Assembly: GCA_963765575.1 (NCBI GenBank)
Contig: CAVXWZ010000005.1
Span: 32,001-96,000 of the forward strand
Length of the DNA: 64,000 nucleotides
Reading direction: 5' to 3'
Origin: an uncultured cyanobacterium
Lineage (GTDB): Bacteria; Cyanobacteriota; Cyanobacteriia; PCC-6307; Cyanobiaceae
Of the stretch, positions 2,606-63,018 are shown one piece after another. A program made the translations under genes and the position numbers. The number at the start of each line of letters is the position of its first letter. The stretch's first letter is position 1. The notes below the pieces were generated by a model, which did not search any database, was not told the origin of the DNA, and saw nothing but the letters and a program-made list of their open reading frames with translations.

Positions 2606-4394
2606 ATGACGCTCAGCCCCGCCAGGCCCGTACCCGAAGCCGTCAGCGCCGCCCAACAACGTCTGGAGATCGAGCTGCTGCGTGGCGAGTCGGTGCTCAG
2701 CGCCGAGCAGCTGCAACCGGAACAGCTCCAGAACACCGTGCTGCCCCTGGAGCGCTGGTTGCAGCTCGGTGCCTGCCCGGCGGGTGAGCCCGAGGCGGGA
2801 CAGCTGCCGGTGGCGGTGCCCAGCCACTGGGACCAGGAGCAGCGCCAGCAGCTGGCGGGCGAGCTCAATCGCAAGGGCTACCTGCCCCGCTTCCGGCTCG
2901 CCCTCAGCCCGGACATCCAGGAGGCCCTGGGCCGCACCCTCGAGATCCCCGCAGCGGCCATCCCCCTGCACTCGCTCACCGACGAGCTGGGGCTGCGGGC
3001 TGACAACGGCGAGGAACTGCAGGAGATCTCCGATCTGGAGGATCTGGAGGCCAATCCGGCCAAGTCGAATGCCGATGCCAACGCCTCGCCGATCATCAAT
3101 CTGGTGAACAGGCTGCTGGTGGAGGCGCTCAACAGCGAGGCCAGCGATATCCATATCGAACCTCAGGAGCACTCCCTTGATGTGCGCTTCCGGCTGGACG
3201 GGGTGCTGCAGAAGCGTTTCGAGGATCTGCCCCGCAGCCTGACCCCGGCGGTCACCTCCCGGATCAAGATCATGGCCGACCTGGACATCGCCGAACGGCG
3301 CATGCCCCAGGACGGCCGCATCCGGCGCCGTTTCCGCGGTCGCCGCATGGACTTCCGGGTGAGCACCCTGCCCAGCCGCACCGGCGAGAAGGTGGTGCTA
3401 CGGCTGCTGGACAGCGGCGCCACCGAACTGGGCCTCGACACCCTGATCACCGACCCGGAGGCCCGGCAGACCCTGCGCGACCTCGGCTCCAAGCCCTACG
3501 GCATGGTGCTGGTGACCGGCCCCACGGGTTCCGGGAAATCCACCACCCTCTACGCCCTGCTGGCGGAACGCAACGACCCGGGCATCAACATCTCCACGGT
3601 GGAGGATCCGATCGAGTACACCCTGCCCGGCATCACCCAGACCCAGGTGAACCGGGACAAGGGACTGGACTTCGCCACGGCCCTGCGGGCCTTCATGCGC
3701 CAGGACCCGGACGTGCTGCTGGTGGGCGAGACGCGCGACCTGGAAACCGCCAAGACCGCCATGGAGGCAGCCCTCACTGGTCACCTGGTGATGACCACCC
3801 TGCACTGCAACGACGCACCCAGCGCCATTGCCCGACTCGATGAAATGGGCGTCGAGCCCTTTCTGGTGAGCGCTTCGTTGCTGGGGGTGATCTCCCAGCG
3901 CCTGGTGCGGCGGGCGTGCCCTGCCTGCCGAATTCCCTATCACCCCGAGCCAGAGGAACTCAGTCGCTTCGGCCTGATGGGCAGCCAGGAGTCGGAGGTC
4001 ACCTTTTACCGGGCCAATGCAACCCATGTCGGCATGGAGGGCTGCTGCCCGGTGTGCAACGGCACGGGCTACAAGGGCCGCATCGGCGTGTTCGAGATCC
4101 TGCGCATGAATGACGAGCTCTCGGCGGCGATCGCCAAACGCCAGAGCACCGACGTGCTGCGCCGCATGGCCCTGGAAACGGGCATGAAGACGCTGCTGGG
4201 CTACGGCCTGCAGCTGGTGCGCGAGGGTCACACGACCCTGGCGGAGGTGGAGCGGATTCTGCTCACCGATTCCAGCCTGGAGAGCGAGCGCCGCGCCCGC
4301 TCCCATGCATCAGCTCAGCTGCGGGACCTGCGGTGCAGGGCTGCGGGAGGAGTGGCTTGAATGTCCCTACTGCCTCACCAGCACCCCGCTCTGA
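2606..4394 (+). CDS. pilB: Type IV pilus assembly ATPase PilB (frameshift near 4302; Cys-rich C-terminus in another frame)
   Basis: ASDIHIEP, GPTGSGKST, LRAFMRQDPDV, AALTGHLV. The alternative frame after ~4302 reads QLSCGTCGAGLREEWLECPYCLTSTPL*. Confidence 0.9.
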
Positions 4395-4416
4395 ACGTCC
4401 CCGTGTCAGGTTCCCC

Positions 4417-5496
4417 ATGGCCGTGATGATTGAAGACCTGATGAGTCAGCTCGTTGCCGACGGCGGCAGCGACCTGCACATCAGCGCCGGTTTACCCCCC
4501 TACGGACGCTTCAACGGCCAGCTGCGGCCGATCCAGGACGACCGGCTCGACAGCGATGTCTGCAACAAGCTGATCTTCTCCCTGCTGAACAATTCCCAGC
4601 GCAAACAACTGGAGCAGAACTGGGAGCTGGACTGCTCCTACGGCCTGCGCGGCGTGGCCCGCTTCCGGGTGAACGTGTTCCGGCAGCGCGGCACCTACGC
4701 CGCCAGCCTGCGCGCCCTGGGCAACGACATCCCCAGCATGAAGGCCCTGGGTCTGCCTCCGATCGTGGAGGAGACCAGCCGCCTGCCCAAGGGCCTGGTG
4801 CTGGTGACGGGCCCCACCGGTTCAGGCAAGACCACCACCCTGGCGGCGATCCTGGACCACATCAACAAGACCCGCGCCGAGCACATCATCACGATCGAGG
4901 ACCCGATCGAGTTCACCTACCGGTCCGACAAGAGCGTCGTGCATCAGCGTCAGGTGCATGACGACACCCGCAGTTTCGCCAACGCCCTGCGGGCGTCACT
5001 CAGGGAAGACCCCGACGTGATCCTGGTGGGAGAACTGCGCGACCTGGAGACGATCCAGCTGGCGATCACCGCCGCCGAAACCGGTCACCTGGTGTTCGGC
5101 ACCCTGCACACCAGCTCCGCCGCCCAGACGGTGGACCGCATGGTTGATGTGTTCCCATCCGGCCAGCAGACCCAGATCCGGGTGCAGCTCAGCACCAGCC
5201 TGGCCGCGGTCTTCGCCCAGACCCTCTGCGTGCGCCACAACCCTGCGCCGGGAGAGCTGGGTCGGGTCATGGCCCAGGAGATCATGATCAACACACCCGC
5301 CGTCGCCAACCTGATCCGTGAGGGCAAGACGGCCCAGCTCTATTCCCAGATCCAGACGGGAGGTCAGATGGCGATGCAGACCCTGGAGAAGGCACTGGCC
5401 GACCTGGTGGTTGCCAACCAGGTGACCATGGATGAGGCCCTGTCCAAGACCACCAAGCGCGAGGAGCTCAAGCGTGTGATCAACCAGCTGAGCTGA
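4417..5496 (+). CDS. pilT: Type IV pilus retraction ATPase PilT
   Basis: GSDLHISAG, GPTGSGKTTT, LREDPDVILVGE, AETGHLVFGTLHT, NLIRE motif. Confidence 0.95.
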   Translation: MAVMIEDLMSQLVADGGSDLHISAGLPPYGRFNGQLRPIQDDRLDSDVCNKLIFSLLNNSQRKQLEQNWELDCSYGLRGVARFRVNVFRQRGTYAASLRALGNDIPSMKALGLPPIVEETSRLPKGLVLVTGPTGSGKTTTLAAILDHINKTRAEHIITIEDPIEFTYRSDKSVVHQRQVHDDTRSFANALRASLREDPDVILVGELRDLETIQLAITAAETGHLVFGTLHTSSAAQTVDRMVDVFPSGQQTQIRVQLSTSLAAVFAQTLCVRHNPAPGELGRVMAQEIMINTPAVANLIREGKTAQLYSQIQTGGQMAMQTLEKALADLVVANQVTMDEALSKTTKREELKRVINQLS

Positions 5497-5538
5497 TCCC
5501 CCACCGCCCCCCTGCGTCGATCACCGCACAGGCCTGCC

Positions 5539-6798
5539 ATGCCCACCTTTACCGCCAGCTACACGAACAGCCGAGGCAGAACGCAGGCCATCGAGGTCGA
5601 CGCCGGTGATGCCCTGCAAGCCAAACGCCGCCTGCGTCAGCGCGGCATCCGGGTCACCGACATCAAGGTCAAACGGCGAAGCTCGGCCAGCAGCCAGCGG
5701 GCCGAGCGGGAACTGCAGCAGAAACTGCGCTTCTCCGGTCTGAAGAGCGCTTTCGAATGGCGGCCGGGCATCAAACAGCGGGCCGTGTTCGCCAGCAAGA
5801 TGGGCGCGCTGGTGAGCACCGGTGTGCCGATCATCCGCAGCATCGATTTGATGGCATCGCAGCAGAAGCTGCCGTTGTTCAAGCGAGCTCTGGAATCGGT
5901 GAGCCTGGAACTGAACCAGGGGAACAGCCTCGGCGCGGCGATGCGGGCCTGGCCAACTGTCTTCGACCGGCTCACCATCGCCATGGTGGAAGCGGGTGAA
6001 GCCGGGGGTGTTCTTGATGAAGCCCTGCGCCGCCTGGGGCAGCTGCTGGAGCAGACCGCCAGGCTGCAGAACAAGATCAAGGGGGCGCTGGCTTATCCGA
6101 TCGCCGTTCTCGTGATCGCCATTGCGGTGTTTCTGGGGATGATGCTGTTCATCATTCCGATCTTCGCCGACCTCTATTCCCAGTTGGGCGGCGAGTTGCC
6201 TGCCTTCACACTGTTTTTCGTCAACATCAGCAATCTGCTGCGCTCCAGCGCCGCTCTGTTCGTGGCGGCCGGTATCGCGCTGGCGATCTTTCTCTTCGTG
6301 CGGTTCTACAAAACCCACTACGGGCGACGGCGCGTCGACGCCCTGATGCTGAAATTGCCGCTGTTCGGTGACCTGATCCAGAAAACAGCCACTGCCCGAT
6401 TCTGTCGCACGTTCAGTTCACTCACCCGGGCCGGCGTGCCGATCCTGCTGTCGCTGGATGTGGTGCGGGAGATCACCGGCAATTCCATCATCGCCGACAC
6501 CATTGCCAACAGCCGCGAGGAGGTGATGCAAGGCATCCCGCTGAGTGTGGCCCTGGGGCGCACCAAGGCCTTCCCCGAACTGGCCCTCAGCATGCTCTCG
6601 ATCGGGGAGGAAACCGGCGAGATGGATACCATGCTCTCCAAGGTGGCTGACTTCTATGAAGACGAGGTCGAAAATGCCACCAAGGCGCTGACGTCCCTTC
6701 TTGAGCCGCTGATGATCATCGTGGTGGGTGGAATCGTGGGCGTGATTCTGGTGGCCATGTACCTGCCGATGTTCAACATCTTCGATCAGATTCGCTGA
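5539..6798 (+). CDS. pilC: Type IV pilus inner-membrane platform protein PilC (GspF family)
   Basis: Two GspF domains ([17 protein letters not shown]), ends YLPMFNIF; third gene of pilBTC. Confidence 0.95.
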
Positions 6799-8062
6799 GC
6801 TTGGCCTGGCCCTCGTCGAGGACCGGCCTCGGCGAGGCCATGTCCAGCAAGCCAGCCTGAGGTCCAGCAGTGCTGGAAGTTGAAGCCTCCGGTGACGCCA
6901 TCGACATCCAGCAGCTCCCCCACGAGCTGCAGACCGGGCTGGAGTCGGCTCTCCATCGTGGCCAGATTCACCTCTCCCAGGGGCACCCCACCAGCGGTGA
7001 CGAACTCCTCGCCGAAGGGCCCACGGCCGCTGACCGCATAGGACGGAATCCCGCAGCGCGGCGATCAACCGGCGCTGCTGGTCGCGCGGCGAGTTCGGCC
7101 CAGCGCCGGAGCGGCTCCACCCCCGCCCGGCCCAGCAGGTGCTGCCAGAGCCTCCGGCTGAGCTCCGGCCAGGGGCGGGCACTGGCGAGCTGGCGCCGGG
7201 CCTGGCTGACGCGGGCCTGCTGGAACAGCTGCTCGAGATCCCCCTGGGAGCGGCCACCGCTCCAGTCAACGCGCAGCCTGGCCCGGTAGCGGCAGGCCTG
7301 CAGCCGACGGGCGGCGAAGGCGGTGAGCCGCAGGATGGCCGGGCCGCTGAGGCCCCAGTGGGTGATCAGCACTGTCCCGCGCTGCCGCAGGGGGCCTCCG
7401 GCGGGCAACTCCAGAGTGAGGCCCACCGGATCCATCGCCACGCCGGCCAGGGCCAGCAGGGGGTCATCCGCCAGGGCCAGGCTGAACAGGGAGGGCACCG
7501 GCGGCACCTGGCCATGGCCGAGGGAGGCGGCCAGGCGACGGCCGCTGGGATGGCTGCCGGTGGCCAGCACCAGCCGCTGGGCCGTGACTGGGTGGGGCTG
7601 CCCGCGCAGCTGCAGGGCAAAGCCCCCCGGAGCGGGGGCCGCGGCCTGCAGGGCGACACCGGTGTGCAGCCGCACACCAGCGGCGGCGGCCGCGCGCCGC
7701 AGGGTGTTCACCACCGAACTGGAGCGGTTGGAGCGGGGAAACAGGCGACCGTCGGGCTCCTCCACCAGCTCCAGGCCATGGTCGTTGAACCAGGCCAGCG
7801 CATCCCCGGCGGCAAAGCGCGAAAATGGGCCCCGCAGCGCCCGGCTGCCCCGCGGGTAGTGACCCACCAGCTCGCCGGGATCCCAGCAGGCATGGGTGAC
7901 ATTGCAGCGGCCACCGCCGCTGATGCGCACCTTGGTGAGGGGCTCGGGGGTGGCCTCCAGCAGGTGCACACCGCGCACGCCGGCCTCGGCGGCGGTGATG
8001 GCCACCATGAACCCGGCCGGACCGCCGCCAGCCACCACCACGGGCCAGCGCTCAGAATCCAT
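6786..8062 (-). CDS. HI0933/BaiN family flavoprotein (frameshift near 7080)
   Basis: [32 protein letters not shown]. The C-terminus [16 protein letters not shown] lies in ORF 6786..6986. Confidence 0.85.
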
Positions 8063-36848: not shown

Positions 36849-36974
36849 CGACGCCCGGCGCCGCAGGGACGACCCTAGGAATTCTGTCAGCGTGACGCGC
36901 CTGGCTGGCTGGCCTGTCGGCTCGCATTCCTACACTCCACGCCAGCACTACGGCTGAGCGGGTTGGGAAACTCC

Positions 36975-38528
36975 ATGAGACTGTGGCTTGTTGCTCTGCT
37001 GATGGCGGTCAGTGTGCTTCTGATCGGTCCGGTTGCTGCTGTGCCGTCTGGTGCGCCAGTGATTCTGGGGGATGAAACCCTGTTTCGGATCGAGGCCCAG
37101 GTGGCCTCGTTTGCTCCGGATTTTCGGGCTCAGGTGATTTCCGATCGCATCACAAAACTGGCAAAGAATACAGATATCAGCGTCGATACAATCACGGTTG
37201 TTGACAATCCAAAAGTTGGTTCAACCGATCTGCGAGCTGGGGACCTGACGCTCATCACGATCGTGGATGCGGATGCATTGGCGGCCACGAGAGAACGCGA
37301 TGAATTGGCACGTGACTATGCCGAAAAAATCAAGAATGCGATCAATCAATTTCGCAAATCCTATAGCTTCAATAGCATTATCATCGGCATTGTCAGCACT
37401 CTCGGCCTGACGGTGGCGTTTGTTGCCAGTTTGATTGGCATTTCCAGGTCCACACCATTGATTTCGGGGCGTCTGAGGCGCTGGTGTGGCGTGCGTATTG
37501 GTGGCTTGCGCCTGTTCAACACCCAGATCCTCTCGGCTGATCGTGTTGCTGATCTGATCACCGAGATTCTGCGGATCGTGCGCTTTACTCTCTATCTGAT
37601 TCTTGTTTATATCTATATAAATCTGGTGCTTAGTTTCTTTCCCTGGACCATGGGATTGGCACGGCTTCTAATTGGCTACTTGAAAACTGCTGTGACGACA
37701 GTGGGAGCTGGAGTTGTTGACTATCTTCCCAGCTTCTCTTTTCTGATTGTGATCATTGTGATCACCACGTATTTTTTGAAGCTGATCCGCTTCTTTTTTG
37801 CCGAAATTGAATCTGGCGATATCGTGATCGAATGGTTTTATCAGGAATGGGCCAAGCCCACCTATAAGCTCATCCAGTTTCTTGTGCTGGCATTTGCTGT
37901 CACAGTTTCTTTCCCCTATCTGCCAGGCTCCAGCACCCCAGCTTTCCAGGGGGTTTCGATCTTTCTTGGGGTTTTGGTTTCACTGGGTTCTTCCTCGGCG
38001 ATCTCCAACATCTTTGCGGGCATCATTCTCACGTACACCCGCGGCTTTCTAGTTGGAGACCGGGTGCAGATCGCCGACACAGTGGGTGATGTGGTCGACA
38101 AAACCCTCTTTGTCACGCGTGTGAGGACGATCAAGAATGTGGTGATTACTATTCCAAATTCGGCTGTTCTCAGCAGTCACATCATCAACTTCAGTGCCGC
38201 TGGTGCTGCCCCGCACGCGGCCCCCCTGCTGCTGCACACCACCGTCACCCTGGGCTACGACATTCCCTGGCGAACCGTGTATGACGTGCTCATCCGGGCT
38301 GCCGAGGGCACCTCGGCGATCCTGGGCCAGCCCGCCCCGTTCGTGCTGCAAACGTCCCTGGACGACTTCTATGTGCACTACGAACTGAATGCCTACACCG
38401 AGGATCCCGGTGTGATGGCGCGCACCTATTCCGAGCTTTTCGAACGCATCCAGGATCTCTGCCAGGAGGCTGGGATTGAGATCCTCTCCCCCCATTTCCG
38501 CGCCCTGCGCGATGGCAGCCCACCATGA
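36975..38528 (+). CDS. MscS family mechanosensitive channel
   Basis: SLGSSSAISNIFAG, VGDRVQI, ITIPNS, VTLGYD, AGIEILSPH. Confidence 0.92.
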   Translation: MRLWLVALLMAVSVLLIGPVAAVPSGAPVILGDETLFRIEAQVASFAPDFRAQVISDRITKLAKNTDISVDTITVVDNPKVGSTDLRAGDLTLITIVDADALAATRERDELARDYAEKIKNAINQFRKSYSFNSIIIGIVSTLGLTVAFVASLIGISRSTPLISGRLRRWCGVRIGGLRLFNTQILSADRVADLITEILRIVRFTLYLILVYIYINLVLSFFPWTMGLARLLIGYLKTAVTTVGAGVVDYLPSFSFLIVIIVITTYFLKLIRFFFAEIESGDIVIEWFYQEWAKPTYKLIQFLVLAFAVTVSFPYLPGSSTPAFQGVSIFLGVLVSLGSSSAISNIFAGIILTYTRGFLVGDRVQIADTVGDVVDKTLFVTRVRTIKNVVITIPNSAVLSSHIINFSAAGAAPHAAPLLLHTTVTLGYDIPWRTVYDVLIRAAEGTSAILGQPAPFVLQTSLDDFYVHYELNAYTEDPGVMARTYSELFERIQDLCQEAGIEILSPHFRALRDGSPP

Positions 38529-40231: not shown

Positions 40232-40366
40232 GGGCCAGGGGCAATGAGCACAAGTGCGCACCACCGCGGTACGCGCTTATCGCTATTCAACGCTACCGTT
40301 ATGAACGAACGCGCCAGGGCCCACCAGGCTCTCGCCCGTTCCCTGTCCTCCGTCCCCTTTCCTGTC

Positions 40367-41449
40367 ATGGCGTCAACGTCCCTGGCTCCCACCCGGAGCC
40401 ACCCCTGGGAGTCCTTCAAGGACTGGATCACCAGCACCGACAACCGCCTCTACATCGGCTGGTTCGGGGTGCTGATGATCCCCACCCTGCTGGCGGCGGC
40501 CAGCTGCTTCATGATCGCTTTCATCGCCGCTCCCCCCGTCGACATCGACGGCATCCGCGAACCGGTGACCGGCAGCCTGCTCTACGGCAACAACATCATC
40601 ACCGCCGCGGTGGTGCCCAGCTCCAACGCCATCGGCCTGCACTTCTATCCGATCTGGGAGGCCAGCAGCCTCGATGAGTGGCTCTACAACGGCGGCCCCT
40701 ACCAGCTGATCATCTTCCACTTCCTGATCGGTATCTATGCCTATCTGGGCCGCGAGTGGGAGCTGAGCTACCGCCTGGGCATGCGTCCCTGGATCGCCGT
40801 GGCCTACAGCGCTCCGGTGGGCGCCGCCACCGCCGTGCTGCTGGTGTACGCCATCGGCCAGGGCAGCTTCTCCGACCCCATGCCCCTGGGTATTTCCGGC
40901 ACCTTCAACTTCATGCTTGTGCTCCAGGCTGAGCACAACGTGCTCATGCACCCCTTCCACATGCTCGGTGTGGCCGGTGTTTTCGGCGGCAGCCTGTTCT
41001 CGGCCATGCACGGTTCTTTGGTGACCAGCTCGCTGGTGCGGGAGACCACCGAAGCCGAGAGCCAGAACCGCGGCTACAAGTTTGGTCAGGAGGAGGAGAC
41101 TTACAACATCGTGGCCGCCCATGGCTATTTCGGCCGGCTGATCTTTCAGTACGCCTCCTTCAACAACAGCCGCAGCCTGCACTTCTTCCTGGCCGCCTGG
41201 CCGGTGGTGGGGATCTGGTTCGCCACCCTGGCGGTGATCAGCTTCTCCTTCAATGTCAACGGCTTCAACTTCAACCACTCGGTGCTCGATCACCAGGGCC
41301 GGGTGATCAACACCTGGGCCGACGTGCTCAACCGCGGTGGTCTGGGCATTGAGGCCATGCACGAGCGCAACACCCACAACTTCCCCCTCGATCTGGCGGC
41401 CGTGCCGTCGGAGCTCATGCCCCTCAGCGCCCCCTCGATCCCTGCGTGA
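40367..41449 (+). CDS. psbA: Photosystem II D1 protein, divergent D1' (microaerobic) type
   Basis: 360 aa. Keeps D61, Y161, D170, E189, H190, H215, H272, H332, E333, H337, D342, A344; has A80, L158, L186, A286 and E130. Confidence 0.95.
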
Positions 41450-41471
41450 GGCTTTGAACCTCGCCCAGGCG

Positions 41472-41494
41472 GGGCCCGGTTCCACACCGGGCCC
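41472..41494 (+). other. 9-bp GC hairpin without U-tract between psbA and the DUF3365 gene
   Basis: GGGCCCGGT-TCCAC-ACCGGGCCC. Confidence 0.6.
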
Positions 41495-41533
41495 ATGTCC
41501 CCTGTCCATCGTCAACCCATTGCCGGCCGCGTC

Positions 41534-42202
41534 ATGACCCAGCTCTTGTTCACGCTCAGGGCCAGCAACTGGCCGCCGGCAGCACGGCTGGCGCTTGCCG
41601 CGCTGGGCGCCCTGCTCGCTGGGGCGCTGCTGAGCCTGCAGCCCGCAGCCGCCCTGGCTGCCACCACACCAGCACCCGCCACAGCGCCGGTGGATCCAGC
41701 CAGCCTGGCCCGGGCGGTGGACCAGATGGAGCAGCTCGACCGCATGCGCATCTCCCTGGCCTCCAGCCTGGAGGGCAGCAGCGAGGAGCCCACCATGGAC
41801 ACCATGCGTGAGGTGTGCATGCCCGTGGGCAAGCGGGCGATGGCCATCGGCAAGCAGAACGGCTGGAGCGTGCGCCAGGTGGCCAGCAAGGCCCGCAACC
41901 CCGACCATGTCCCCGCCGGCGCCCAGGAGAGCCAGGTGATCGATCTCTTCGCCAGACACCCCGAGATCACCGGCCTGTGGGAGCCTGCCAGCGCCGACCA
42001 GGCAGCCGGTGTGACCTACTACCGCCGCATCGACGTGCAGCCCAGCTGCCTGGCCTGCCATGGCAGCAAGGACAGCCGACCCGCCTTCGTCAAGGACAAG
42101 TACCCCGCGGACAAGGCCTTCGACTTCAAACCCGGTGACCTGCGCGGCATGTACGCCGTGTTCATCCCCGAGGTGCAGGAGGTTCTGCGGCAGGCCGGCT
42201 GA
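41534..42202 (+). CDS. DUF3365/Tll0287-like exported c-type haem protein
   Basis: Signal peptide (AALA|A), VCMPVG, QVASKARNP, SCLACHG (CxxCH), GDLRGMYAV. Confidence 0.88.
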   Translation: MTQLLFTLRASNWPPAARLALAALGALLAGALLSLQPAAALAATTPAPATAPVDPASLARAVDQMEQLDRMRISLASSLEGSSEEPTMDTMREVCMPVGKRAMAIGKQNGWSVRQVASKARNPDHVPAGAQESQVIDLFARHPEITGLWEPASADQAAGVTYYRRIDVQPSCLACHGSKDSRPAFVKDKYPADKAFDFKPGDLRGMYAVFIPEVQEVLRQAG

Positions 42203-42276
42203 CGCCCCGCGGCCAGGATCGGCTCAGGCCGCCGTCCAGCCGCAGGGCTGCAGCCCTGGGTTCAGGTGGTTCAGCA

Positions 42277-42969
42277 TCAGGCGTGCCCTCGCTGGCGGGA
42301 TGGGTGGGCCGGGCCAGGCCGGCGCCAGAGGCCCAGCCACTCATCGCGGCGCTGGGCGATCGAGCCCCTGGCTGGCTCCCAGATCTCCACCACCAGTCCG
42401 GCCTGCTGCGCCAGGTCGATGAGTTCGTGGGGATCGCTGCCCCAGGGCGGGCCACCGGCCCGGCCGTGGCACCAGAACAGGCCCAGCAGCCAGCCGCCGG
42501 GCTGCAACAGCGCCGCCACCGTGGCCATGTAGGCCGCCCGCAGGTGGGGATCGATGGCGCAGAAGCAGGTGTGCTCCACCACCCCCTGCAGACTCCCGGG
42601 CCCGAGCCCCGCGGCCTCCAGTGCCGCCGGATCGAACAGGTCGGCCTGCAGCCAGCGCAGCCCGGGGTGCTCGCGGCCGTGCAGCCGCTGGGCCTCCCCC
42701 ACGGCTTCGCCGCTGAAATCCAGGCCTACCGCGGCGAAGCCCAGCTCCGCCAGCAGGGCGGCTTCATGGCCGCGGCCGCAGCCGGGCACCAGCACCGGGC
42801 CGCCCGGTGCCGGGGAGCGGCCGTCGTGGCGCAGGAACTCCGCCAGGGGCGGTGTCGGCTGGCCCAGTTCCCAGCCATCGCCGCCCTCGCGGTAGCGCCG
42901 GTCCCAGCGCTCCGGTTCCGCTTGCGGCCCCGCAGCGGGCGCACCAGGGGGAAGCGGACGGGGCGACAT
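42277..42969 (-). CDS. TPMT/HOL-like SAM-dependent thiol/halide methyltransferase
   Basis: WDRRY..GWELG..TPPL, VLVPGCGRGHE, GLDFS, EHTCFCAIDP, GGPPWG. Confidence 0.85.
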   Translation of the reverse strand: MSPRPLPPGAPAAGPQAEPERWDRRYREGGDGWELGQPTPPLAEFLRHDGRSPAPGGPVLVPGCGRGHEAALLAELGFAAVGLDFSGEAVGEAQRLHGREHPGLRWLQADLFDPAALEAAGLGPGSLQGVVEHTCFCAIDPHLRAAYMATVAALLQPGGWLLGLFWCHGRAGGPPWGSDPHELIDLAQQAGLVVEIWEPARGSIAQRRDEWLGLWRRPGPAHPSRQRGHA

Positions 42970-43082
42970 CGCAGCTAGTGTGTAATGACGCAACCATTCT
43001 ATGCCGAAACACTCATGACCATGAGATCCCGGCCCCCTGCCCGCGTCCGTCTCGGCGGCTCCCGCCCCCCCAGGTGCTGGCC

Positions 43083-44393
43083 ATGACCCTCCCTTCCCGG
43101 GGCCACCTGCCGGTGCTGATCGCCGGCGGTGGCACCGCTGGCATCACCCTGGCCAGCTGGCTGCGCAAGCTCGACCCCGAGCTCGAGATCGCCATCATCG
43201 AGCCCTCACCCTTCCACGACTACCAGTCGGGCTGGGTTCTGGTGGCCGGTGGATTCATGGCCGCCGACGCCACCCGGCGCCGCGAACGGGATGTGCTGCC
43301 CGCCGGCGTGGACCTGATCCACAGCAAGGTGGTGGGGTTCGATCCCGAGCACAACGCCGTCGAGCTGATCGGCGGCCAGCGCCTCAGCTACGGGGTGCTG
43401 GTGGTGGCCCTGGGCATCGAGCTCAACTGGACCGCCGTCGAGGGTCTGGCCCAGACCCTGGGCCATCACCATGTCACCAGCATCTACAGCCGCCGCACGG
43501 CCCGTTACAGCCGCCGCTGTTTCGAGGAGTTCCAGGGCGGCACGGCCGTGTTCACCCAGCCGGCCACGGCGATCAAGTGCGGCGGGGCGCCCCAGAAGAT
43601 CATGCACCTGGCCCACCAGCAGTTCCAGGCCCGCAGCGGCGTGGGGGTCAACAGCCGCACCCTGTTCTGCACCGCCCAGGCCAGCCTGTTCCCGGTGCAG
43701 GCCTACAGCGACAAGATGGTGGAGATCGCCCAGCGCCACCATTCCGAGGTGCGCTACCACCACGACCTGGTGGCCGTGGACGGCGAGGCCGGCCTGGCCA
43801 CGTTTTGCGTCCAGGAGCCGGGGCAGCGCCAGCGCCTGGAGACGCTTCACTTCGACCTGCTGCATGTGGTGCCGCCGATGTCGGCGCCGCCGGTGGTGGC
43901 CGCCAGCTCCCTGGCCGTTCAGCCCAGCGGCGACCAGCCGGCGGCCGCCACTGGTGGTTGGGTGGAGGTGGACCCCCGCACGGCCCGCCACGTGCGCTAC
44001 GGCAATGTGTTCGCCATCGGTGATGTGGGCTCCTTCCCCACCGCCAAGACGGCGGCGGCGGTGCGCAAGCAGGCGCCCGTGGTGGCGGCCAACGTGCTGG
44101 CGGCACTCCGGGGTCGGGCCCCCGATTGCGCTTACGACGGCTATAGCGCCTGCCCGCTGATCACCAGCGACCACACGGTGATGATGATGGAGTTCGACTA
44201 CAGCAAGCAGCCGGTCAGCAGTTTTCTGGTCAATCCGGTCAAGGAGCGCTGGTTTGCCTGGCTGCTCGAGCGCTTTGGCTTCCCCTGGATCTACTGGCAC
44301 CGCATGCTCAAGGCCAAACCCCATGAGGCGATCTATCTCCAGCCGTTCCAGGGTCTGGCCCGGCGCCTGGGCCTGATGCGTTGGCAGGCCTGA
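43083..44393 (+). CDS. sqr: Sulfide:quinone oxidoreductase, type II-like
   Basis: GGGTAG FAD motif, IKCGGAPQKI and YDGYSACPL (two redox cysteines), NVFAIGD, KTAAAV, amphipathic C-terminus. Confidence 0.88.
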   Translation: MTLPSRGHLPVLIAGGGTAGITLASWLRKLDPELEIAIIEPSPFHDYQSGWVLVAGGFMAADATRRRERDVLPAGVDLIHSKVVGFDPEHNAVELIGGQRLSYGVLVVALGIELNWTAVEGLAQTLGHHHVTSIYSRRTARYSRRCFEEFQGGTAVFTQPATAIKCGGAPQKIMHLAHQQFQARSGVGVNSRTLFCTAQASLFPVQAYSDKMVEIAQRHHSEVRYHHDLVAVDGEAGLATFCVQEPGQRQRLETLHFDLLHVVPPMSAPPVVAASSLAVQPSGDQPAAATGGWVEVDPRTARHVRYGNVFAIGDVGSFPTAKTAAAVRKQAPVVAANVLAALRGRAPDCAYDGYSACPLITSDHTVMMMEFDYSKQPVSSFLVNPVKERWFAWLLERFGFPWIYWHRMLKAKPHEAIYLQPFQGLARRLGLMRWQA

Positions 44394-44935
44394 GATCCCC
44401 GCTGCGATCGTTGGCCGTCGCCGGGGCCCTGCTGGCGGTGGTGGGCTGCGGCCCCCGCCTGCCCCGGGCGGCCTCCGATCAACAGCTGGCCGCCGAGGTG
44501 GAGCGCCGCTATGCCGGCTTCCGCCAGCGCCTGTTCCCCGCCGTGCCCGACATCAGCGTGGCCGCATGGGACGCCGCCGCAGCACCAGCAGGGCCTGGTC
44601 AGCCGCTCCTGCTGGTGGATGTGCGCGCTGCCCACGAGCAGGCGGTGTCGATGCTGCCGGGGGCGATCGGCCGCCAGGCCTTCGAGCGCGAGCGCGAGCG
44701 CTACCGCGAGCACCTGATCGTGCCTTACTGCACCATCGGCCTGCGCAGCGGTCTCTATGCCCGGCAGTTGATCGAGGAGGGCTTTGCGGCTCGCAATCTG
44801 GCCGGCAGCGCCCTGGCCTGGGCCCACGCCGGCTTGGCCTTCGAGGCTGACGGCAAGCCCACCCGGCGGGTGCATGTCTACGGAGCCGACTGGAATCTGC
44901 TGCCGGCTGGCTACGAGCCCGTGCTGGGCCGTTGA
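44381..44935 (+). CDS. Single-domain rhodanese with lipoprotein signal
   Basis: LLAVVG|C lipobox, LLVDVR..EQAVSMLPGA, active loop YCTIGLRS, NLAGSALAW; overlaps the sqr stop. Confidence 0.85.
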   Translation: MAGLRSPLRSLAVAGALLAVVGCGPRLPRAASDQQLAAEVERRYAGFRQRLFPAVPDISVAAWDAAAAPAGPGQPLLLVDVRAAHEQAVSMLPGAIGRQAFERERERYREHLIVPYCTIGLRSGLYARQLIEEGFAARNLAGSALAWAHAGLAFEADGKPTRRVHVYGADWNLLPAGYEPVLGR

Positions 44936-60957: not shown

Positions 60958-61092
60958 GGCGGCACGGCTGCGGAGAGCCGAACCGTAGGCCGTGGTTCGG
61001 CAGCTGTTCGGGAACCACACCTCGCCCGGCAAGGGCCCCACTGCTGAGGATGCAGCAATCAAATCTCAGTGACCACAAGGAGGACGTAACCC

Positions 61093-63018
<1,926 letters not shown>

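Follow-up and report, generated by a model that had tools for sequence, protein, structure and literature searches.

How cyanobacteria keep or switch photosynthesis under sulfide has long been asked with regard to chemoclines, mats, and the Proterozoic ocean. The question is raised again by a locus of an uncultured cyanobacterium of the family Cyanobiaceae (GenBank assembly GCA_963765575.1), in which psbA for a low-oxygen form (D1′) of the photosystem II (PSII) reaction center protein D1 lies close to sqr, encoding a sulfide:quinone oxidoreductase (SQR). The locus occupies positions 40367-44935 of a 64,000-nucleotide stretch of DNA, hereafter the window, which corresponds to positions 32001-96000 of contig C5 in a genome of 2.71 Mb (11 contigs, ∼70% G+C, 99.97% complete). 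Open reading frame and profile checks identified five genes, all intact, in the order psbA (+), a Tll0287-like gene (+), a methyltransferase gene (−), sqr (+), and a rhodanese gene (+). An initial annotation, made from the letters of the sequence alone, had proposed the same identities, order, orientations, and coordinates, and these agree with our profile and structure-sequence matches.

This five-gene island is a variant of the known psbA-sqr island and does not represent a new system; its genes form a real, conserved group. Grim & Dick 2016 (PMC5061849) reported group 2 or 3 psbA within a few genes of sqr of types I, II, or VI in 15 genomes, and described the link as "intriguing but currently untested." The window displays the same feature, i.e. 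a group 3 psbA a few genes from sqr; two genes lie between them, where the published definition allows a distance of up to five genes. The initial annotation had considered the arrangement undescribed in a picocyanobacterium. For the psbA-sqr core this does not stand, because in Table S2 of PMC5061849 Cyanobium sp. PCC 7001 appears with a group 3 psbA, flagged "near a sqr," and a type II sqr, the identifiers of the two genes being two apart. The exact five-gene order without insertions occurs, among the loci that we mapped, in the window alone. In open-access main texts, we found no description of the island in picocyanobacteria (Cyanobium PCC 7001 is listed in the supplement of PMC5061849) and none of a Tll0287 gene between psbA and sqr, of the methyltransferase, or of control sites. 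Likewise, the parts of Grim & Dick 2016 covered here name no Tll0287, methyltransferase, rhodanese, or cis element; beyond what they report, the window island includes a HOL-type methyltransferase gene in divergent orientation and a gene for a lipoprotein rhodanese.

What is new here is an SQR-like gene near Tll0287 in 11 of 20 loci of other families, two candidate control sites, and two methyltransferases tied to a sulfur regulon. The psbA-sqr question is sharpened, since the intervening gene proves to be a genuine Tll0287 ortholog. The two candidate control sites predict separable oxygen and sulfide responses, and with two methyltransferases that have a sulfur-gene site, the release of volatile sulfur by picocyanobacteria would become open to testing; strains of Cyanobium in culture that carry the island are on public record.

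Predicted products of the five genes

The psbA gene (40367-41449, forward strand) encodes a 360-residue D1 of the group 3, low-oxygen type, which scores 708 bits against TIGR01151 (cut-off 596). The genome contains four psbA genes, and the window copy is 80-82% identical to the other three, which are two identical E130 copies and one Q130 copy. Gly80Ala, Phe158Leu, and Thr286Ala are the sole three changes that separate D1′ from traditional D1 forms (Mulo et al. 2009, PMC2776144). The window D1 shows each of them when it is compared with the other three copies of the genome, and the triple signature is found in 35 of the 35 D1 copies linked to Tll0287 in our survey of related loci. The residues of the Mn4CaO5 cluster (D170, E189, H332, E333, H337, D342, A344, Y161, and H190) are all retained. 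Because it keeps every ligand of the water-splitting cluster, the window protein is predicted to be a working oxygenic low-oxygen D1, i.e. a functional D1′, and not a "rogue" (group 1 or 2) D1. The signature residues and the retained Mn ligands thus bear out the D1′ call of the initial annotation. Scores against D1 chains in the PDB did not separate the Thermosynechococcus elongatus forms, with 670.1 bits for PsbA2 and 672.5 bits for PsbA3. Residue 171 (window 40877-40879), beside the Mn ligand D170, is Pro in the window D1′ and Gly in standard D1; among the 35 linked D1′ copies, Pro occurs 15 times, and Gly and Ala occur 10 times each.

Just past the psbA stop there are two stem-loops (41446-41495, forward strand), the second of which reads GGGCCCGG-ttccaca-CCGGGCCC. 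The stems recur in relatives with different loops, and their folding energy is no better than that of shuffled sequences (z −0.71); they might serve as a terminator, an attenuator, or an RNA stabilizer.

The next gene (41495-42202, forward strand) encodes a Tll0287 ortholog, with a PF11845 (sCache_haem) score of 90.8 bits (cut-off 24.1) and a CLACH motif. Its true start is probably the ATG at 41534, because the GC hairpin at 41471-41495 covers the first ATG and orthologs start further downstream. The crystallized Tll0287 of T. elongatus (PDB 5b82) belongs to the same family and matches with an E value of 8.6e-58 over residues 46-232. Both proteins have a CXXCH motif and an aligned cysteine, which lies in EVCMPVG in the window protein and in AVCAPVG in 5b82. 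CLACH and the Cys of EVCMPVG are invariant in seven Tll0287 orthologs, and this Cys may be the axial heme ligand outside CXXCH. The N terminus is hydrophobic and ends with ALAA, and the protein is therefore predicted to be an exported c-type heme protein. In Thermosynechococcus, Tll0287 accumulates when psbA2, which encodes a D1′, is the sole psbA (bioRxiv 10.1101/2023.02.13.528314). The same preprint quotes a proposal that Tll0287 is a micro-aerobic redox sensor or the cytochrome subunit of a H2S-oxidizing system, so the role in sulfide handling that the initial annotation mentioned does exist in the literature, as that quotation.

The sqr gene (43083-44393, forward strand) encodes a 436-residue protein predicted to be a type II SQR, since it is far closer to human SQOR (6mp5; E 3.7e-84, 286.5 bits) than to the type I SQR of Aquifex (3hyv; 41.6 bits). 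Both redox cysteines of human SQOR are aligned (IKCGGAPQK and YSACPLITS), a Pyr_redox_2 domain is present, and the flavin adenine dinucleotide (FAD) motif IAGGGTAG starts at residue 12. No signal peptide was found in this SQR, which begins straight into the FAD motif.

The rhodanese gene (44381-44935, forward strand), which overlaps the sqr stop by 13 nucleotides, encodes a single-domain lipoprotein (lipobox LAVVGC, invariant in nine orthologs) whose PF00581 score of 22.2 bits equals the cut-off. An AlphaFold model built from 41 homologs reached a mean predicted local distance difference test (pLDDT) score of 89.7, compared with 42.9 for an earlier model from nine close orthologs. When this model was compared with known structures using Foldseek, the top matches were all rhodanese domains, including fusions of persulfide dioxygenase (PDO) and rhodanese (3tp9 and 5ve3) and the persulfide reductase Npsr (3nta). 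The loop CTIG-RSG is invariant in the 41 homologs and aligns with the Npsr loop. The model thus confirms, despite the borderline Pfam score, the predicted rhodanese fold, in which CTIG-RSG is the predicted active-site Cys loop.

The remaining gene, on the reverse strand (42277-42993), encodes an S-adenosylmethionine-dependent methyltransferase of the HOL/TPMT family (halide/thiol type), with a PF05724 score of 73.3 bits (cut-off 26). Its nearest solved structures are 9h04 (1.9e-23), 9h0d, a "thiol methyltransferase 1" (3.6e-18), the methyl chloride transferase 3lcc (1.5e-17), and the halide methyl transferase 8ajp. The thiopurine methyltransferase equivalog models were not reached (26.8 bits, cut-off 223). 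The lone hint at a sulfur substrate is an operator-like site in common with sulfur genes. NCBIfam contains no Tll0287 model and gave no equivalog match for SQR, the methyltransferase, or the rhodanese.

Conservation of the island in Cyanobium-type genomes

In a survey of 31 other genomes of the genus, in which 18 SQR loci were mapped, some SQR match was found in 29 genomes; 13 have an ortholog of the window-type SQR (69-87% identity) and 5 have a type 52% identical to it. In 11 of the 13 loci, Tll0287 precedes the window-type sqr on the same strand; of the two exceptions, one is cut by the end of a contig and the other has no Tll0287 in the stretch that was fetched. In 8 of the 13, psbA directly precedes Tll0287. 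The rhodanese follows sqr in 7 and the methyltransferase precedes it in 6. In five genomes of the genus psbA, tll0287, and sqr are tightly packed, with gaps of 24-75 bp, in a different neighborhood.

A separate scan for relatives of Tll0287 yielded 54 public loci, nearly all labeled Cyanobium, Synechococcus, or Prochlorococcaceae. Fifty have a Tll0287 anchor, and some contigs overlap with the 18-locus set. Of the 43 loci with room for it, 32 have a psbA gene no more than 2 kb upstream of Tll0287, and 22 of 36 have an SQR gene no more than 10 kb away (21 if a doubtful match of 22% identity is set aside). When either SQR or PDO is counted, the figure is 30 of 36 (29 credible). Linkage of psbA, Tll0287, and SQR is therefore kept in relatives, and since the grouping recurs it is more than chance. 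Other genes near Tll0287 are less regular: a PetC paralog in 22 of 50, a methyltransferase (TPMT) in 18, an MddA-like gene in 14, cytochrome bd in 9, and a lipoprotein rhodanese of the window type in 6. Certain Tll0287 loci truly have no psbA, or a psbA remnant only. Hence D1′ psbA, Tll0287, and SQR form the conserved core of the island.

The commonest layout is psbA, a DUF4079 gene, tll0287, a petC paralog, sqr, arsR (on the opposite strand), PDO-rhodanese, a YgaP-type rhodanese, TauE, and a 148-residue gene, often with cytochrome bd and a pair of methyltransferase and MddA-like genes nearby. Relatives' islands thus carry PDO-rhodanese, YgaP-rhodanese, TauE, cytochrome bd, a 1-Cys peroxiredoxin, and a PetC paralog in addition to what is found in the window. 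The nearest variants of the window order are loci L044 and L065, in which an MddA-like gene is inserted, and loci L062 and L077, which have no sqr. The site between the ATP-binding cassette (ABC) ATPase gene and uvrA is occupied by the island in one sub-clade only; there, 7 of 10 genomes have psbA after the ABC gene. In locus L050, a phytochelatin synthase gene (3381-4103; PF05023, 2e-66) lies between tll0287 and an MddA-like gene.

Tll0287 and SQR in other families

PF11845 is present in 104 of 151 sampled genomes of the class and in none of 11 sampled genomes from other genera of the window's own family (G061, G064, and G084 among them). From more than 180 matches we picked 20 small stand-alone ones, from 20 genomes, blind to their neighbors. 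In 11 of these 20 loci, all of other families, an SQR-like gene lies within ∼1 kb of Tll0287 on the same strand; it is the direct neighbor in 10, and in the remaining one (L125) a PetC paralog intervenes. These SQR-like genes are 24-26% identical to the type II query. The 20 loci contain a PetC paralog in 5 cases and psbA in 1, and the link of D1′ to Tll0287 is strongest in the Cyanobium clade.

The type of SQR outside the genus was checked in one locus, that of genome G111. Its Tll0287 is full-length and near-identical to 5b82 (379 bits), and its gene lies 39 bp downstream of a type I SQR gene (3hyv, E 2.7e-92), whereas in the window the type II SQR is encoded downstream of Tll0287 and D1′ psbA lies directly upstream. 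As Tll0287 adjoins two SQR types at ∼25% identity, the pairing fits a metabolite or regulatory link better than a fixed complex.

A possible model for a fixed complex is FccAB, which pairs a sulfide-oxidizing flavoprotein from the superfamily of SQR with a c-type cytochrome encoded next to it; the window SQR matches the flavin subunits 3vrd (1.9e-23) and 1fcd (5.6e-21). There are clear differences, however. The window SQR has no export signal, whereas Tll0287 is predicted to be exported, and the fold of Tll0287 is Cache/PAS-like and not that of a cytochrome c (bioRxiv 10.64898/2026.02.01.703092). In addition, Tll0287 stays paired with SQR even where the SQR type has changed, which speaks against a specific FccAB-like complex.

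Two candidate control sites

A palindrome-like site, ATGAGCA-N4-TGCGCAC (ATGAGCACAAGTGCGCAC; 40244-40261), lies 123 bp upstream of the psbA start and is a candidate control site of the D1′ promoter. Its consensus, TGAGCA-N4-TGCTCA, is found with at most three mismatches in 26 of 35 D1′ upstream regions, at positions −104 to −151, and the mean mismatch is 2.46 versus 4.53 in 200 shuffles. Part of this conservation is common descent, the promoters being orthologous. A looser pattern of the same type has 31 matches in 825 kb of related loci, 23 of them upstream of psbA, and a search of the window's own genome found no other convincing copy of the psbA-type palindrome.

A different, operator-like site, ATGCCGAAACACTCAT (ATGC-N8-KCAT; 43001-43016), lies in the divergent intergenic region between the methyltransferase gene and sqr. 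It is conserved in locus L070 and degenerate in L065. In L063, the same intergenic region contains instead about four tandem copies of a ∼20-bp unit (GACGGACTTTCGTCAAGAC-like). The same palindrome, as ATGC-N8-GCAT and often with TCAT as the last half, occurs in relatives between arsR and PDO, before the sqr of the 52% type, and before the petC paralog. A stricter pattern, ATGCSG-N4-RCTCAT, matched exactly at three places genome-wide, including one in a GC-rich region that has no relation to sulfur genes, and was then generalized. The general pattern ATGC-N8-KCAT has 89 matches in the genome, seven of which lie within the 4.5 kb of DNA that precedes 22 sulfur-island genes, versus 0.15 expected. 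Four of the seven played no part in defining the pattern: those before PDO (C8:319101), the second TPMT (C8:16354), the MddA-like gene (C3:51633), and ArsR (C1:166604). In the 54 related loci (825 kb) there are 84 matches, mostly by PDO (21), SQR (18), arsR (18), and petC (12), and just 3 of the 35 D1′ promoters have one. The site is a clade feature. Considering that the right half ATGCTCATA is common to many D1′ and PDO sites, the psbA-type and sulfur-type sites may be related.

These cis elements suggest that the window probably contains two control units, psbA-tll0287 on the one hand and the divergent methyltransferase/sqr-rhodanese genes on the other. The proposal of the initial annotation that the five genes are one unit is thus doubtful, as psbA and sqr have different conserved cis elements and the methyltransferase gene is divergently transcribed. 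Scans of the regions between the island genes for sigma-70 promoters found nothing, and scans for terminators nothing convincing.

Candidate regulators of the operator-like site, ArsR-type proteins, are encoded outside the window, at C8:4220-4546 and C1:166245-166559. In relatives' islands and in a second island of the genome (see below), an ArsR-family gene and PDO-rhodanese are transcribed divergently from either side of a palindrome, as in the sqr-pdo-rhodanese operons controlled by SqrR, BigR, or YgaV. The ArsR protein matches the YgaV, BigR, and SqrR structures with E values of 3.3e-08 to 7.5e-06, but its best matches are Rv0081 and NmtR, and it reached no equivalog model (38.8 bits for the BigR model, cut-off 155).

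Relation to other known systems

D1′ psbA genes are clustered with a gene for a rhodanese-domain protein in Synechocystis (slr1181-slr1185) and Acaryochloris (AM1_0448-0451) as well, and D1′, petC, and rhodanese genes are co-induced there under micro-oxic conditions (PMC5295598). These clusters contain an alternative PetC, which the window island does not, and no sqr or Tll0287 is mentioned for them in the part of PMC5295598 covered here. Moreover, the window rhodanese is a lipoprotein of a different subfamily. In Synechococcus PCC 7002, polysulfide induces a psbA and petC (PMC12466478).

The window methyltransferase is of the HOL/HTMT type, like the plant-type halide/thiol methyltransferases. 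In relatives, its gene overlaps a gene for a membrane methyltransferase of the ICMT/PEMT family; MddA is an ICMT-family member. There is no MddA-like gene in the window, and the label MddA-like used here for genes elsewhere reflects weak Pfam (28 bits) and NCBIfam (39.6 bits) matches. MddA methylates H2S and methanethiol and can detoxify both (PMC11445057).

Proposed working and alternative explanations

Our preferred reading, in which we have moderate confidence, is that the window carries a compact version of the low-oxygen/sulfide island of cyanobacteria, with all five genes intact and organized in two control units. This island would oxidize or methylate sulfide while PSII runs with a low-oxygen D1, and it likely aids the cell under sulfide and low oxygen. 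By analogy with other cyanobacteria (PMC2776144 and PMC5295598), D1′ psbA and tll0287 would be induced when oxygen is low or the cell is in a reduced state, tll0287 sitting in this first unit behind the two hairpins that follow psbA. A putative ArsR-type repressor sensing sulfane sulfur would release the sqr and methyltransferase promoters. SQR would then pass electrons from sulfide to plastoquinone at the cytoplasmic face, and sulfane sulfur might be finished by PDO-rhodanese, YgaP, and TauE, which are encoded elsewhere (C8 near 319 kb, and C2). The methyltransferase could convert HS− or thiols to methylated volatiles. Tll0287 and the lipoprotein rhodanese would act outside the cytoplasm, in the lumen or periplasm, where the heme of Tll0287 would be a sulfide/redox sensor or carrier, and not a bound SQR subunit. 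We infer all of these steps from homology and from the common operator-like site.

Several observations weigh against this reading. The methyltransferase and the rhodanese are variable accessories to the conserved core; indeed, the five tight psbA-tll0287-sqr loci have neither TPMT nor lipoprotein rhodanese, and in L062 and L077 the methyltransferase gene adjoins that of the lipoprotein rhodanese, which persists although sqr was lost or never inserted. A direct hand-over of sulfur from SQR to the rhodanese is topologically doubtful, because a lipobox is conserved in the rhodanese whereas SQR lacks a signal peptide, so that the two may be on opposite sides of the membrane. The island itself contains no PDO. 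The substrate of the methyltransferase may be other than sulfide, since the family also methylates halides, and upstream of relatives' TPMT genes there are only variants of the operator-like site, in ∼8 of the 17 regions shown. The ATGC-N8-KCAT pattern was partly defined on sites that were later counted, 3 of the 7 being of the defining kinds, and in the 20 loci of other families none of its 5 matches in 244 kb is near Tll0287. Because psbA and sqr have different cis elements, their co-induction is not implied. In addition, the frameshifts in the second island of the genome may reflect relaxed selection on sulfide genes, or assembly errors.

Part of the evidence would also suit the stronger reading of the initial annotation, a module for anoxygenic photosynthesis, in which a D1′ swap on exposure to sulfide changes or quietens PSII, and electrons from SQR pass via plastoquinone to photosystem I and drive CO2 fixation with sulfide. 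The window SQR has both catalytic cysteines, and the SQR of Synechococcus PCC 7002 supports growth with sulfide and the PSII inhibitor 3-(3,4-dichlorophenyl)-1,1-dimethylurea (PMC12466478). The genomic context is suggestive as well, with sqr following psbA-tll0287 after 24-75 bp in five members of the genus, as in an operon, and an alternative Rieske protein added in relatives' islands. Nevertheless, we consider such a module possible but rather unlikely, since the window D1′ keeps every water-splitting ligand and is predicted to be oxygenic, sqr is preceded by a promoter region of its own, in which the site is another one, and type II SQRs also function in detoxification and sulfane-sulfur signaling (PMC7042703). 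The different cis elements could also mean that a low-oxygen PSII pair and a sulfide-detoxification set are separate stress modules, juxtaposed without coupling in a mosaic flexible region. This would agree with the varying content of relatives' islands (cytochrome bd, phytochelatin synthase, and MddA-like inserts; losses of sqr or psbA) and with the presence of the island at the ABC/UvrA site in one sub-clade only. It is harder to reconcile with Tll0287 lying near SQR across SQR types and families (11 of 20 loci in other families, 21 of 36 within the genus), with the tight psbA-tll0287-sqr arrangement in five genomes, and with the three D1′ promoters that carry a sulfur-type site and the right half-site that many D1′ and PDO sites have in common; we therefore judge uncoupled juxtaposition unlikely.

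A further possible role for SQR would be housekeeping with endogenous sulfide, in which SQR mainly makes sulfane sulfur that tunes photosynthesis genes, a role proposed for the SQR of Synechococcus PCC 7002, and its proximity to psbA reflects signaling and not sulfidic water. The SQR of PCC 7002 oxidizes sulfide made by the cell itself, and psbA genes are up 1.5- to 2-fold in an sqr mutant (PMC7042703). A further SQR paralog is common to nearly all members of the genus, at least one SQR match being present in 29 of 31, but this near-universal paralog (on C1 in the window's genome) is the better housekeeping candidate, whereas the window-type SQR has the patchy distribution (13 of 31) that a niche gene would be expected to show. 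The sulfite exporter and cytochrome bd, a sulfide-tolerant oxidase, in relatives' islands also fit an external sulfide load, and we regard housekeeping as distinctly unlikely for the window SQR.

We put forward a more far-reaching reading as speculation that is unlikely to hold. Tll0287 would be an extracytoplasmic partner of SQR in cyanobacterial sulfide oxidation, whose His/Cys heme reads, or reacts with, sulfide or polysulfide in the lumen or periplasm and couples this signal to D1′ PSII; the partnership would have outlived a swap from type I to type II SQR, and in Cyanobium-type cells the same sulfane-sensing ArsR regulon would drive sulfide methylation to volatile compounds via HOL-type and MddA-like enzymes.

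Second island and genome setting

The initial annotation had noted that no PDO or regulator is visible in the window, which is right for the window; both are encoded elsewhere in the genome. Intact PDO-rhodanese, YgaP, and TauE genes are found at C8:319161-322157, and there is a further PDO-rhodanese gene at C2:603099-604208. A 45% identical SQR paralog is encoded at C1:195585-196787, and PetC paralogs at C8:1324-1833 and on C11.

A second, larger island lies at the start of C8 (bases 21 to ∼16300). It contains a DUF4079 gene, a Tll0287 paralog (73%), petC, sqr, arsR, PDO-rhodanese, YgaP, TauE, the 148-residue gene, cytochrome bd, a rhodanese, an MddA-like gene, and the second methyltransferase gene. 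Its sqr, PDO, and TauE genes are frameshifted, and arsR is whole. Contig C8 starts exactly where psbA would be expected in this island.

In the window, the five-gene island is flanked upstream by genes for a mechanosensitive channel, an unnamed 281-residue protein, and the ABC ATPase, and downstream by a DUF1830 gene, a GNAT acetyltransferase gene, and uvrA. Among public sequencing runs, none from RNA was listed as containing the island stretch, and the best DNA runs contain less than half of its sequence words. The mechanosensitive-channel gene (36963-38528) lies in a stretch with a G+C content of 0.57-0.60, compared with 0.70 around it, and this stretch may be acquired DNA. Two more G+C dips occur in the window, at 61001-63000 (0.625) and at 4001-7000 (0.63-0.65).

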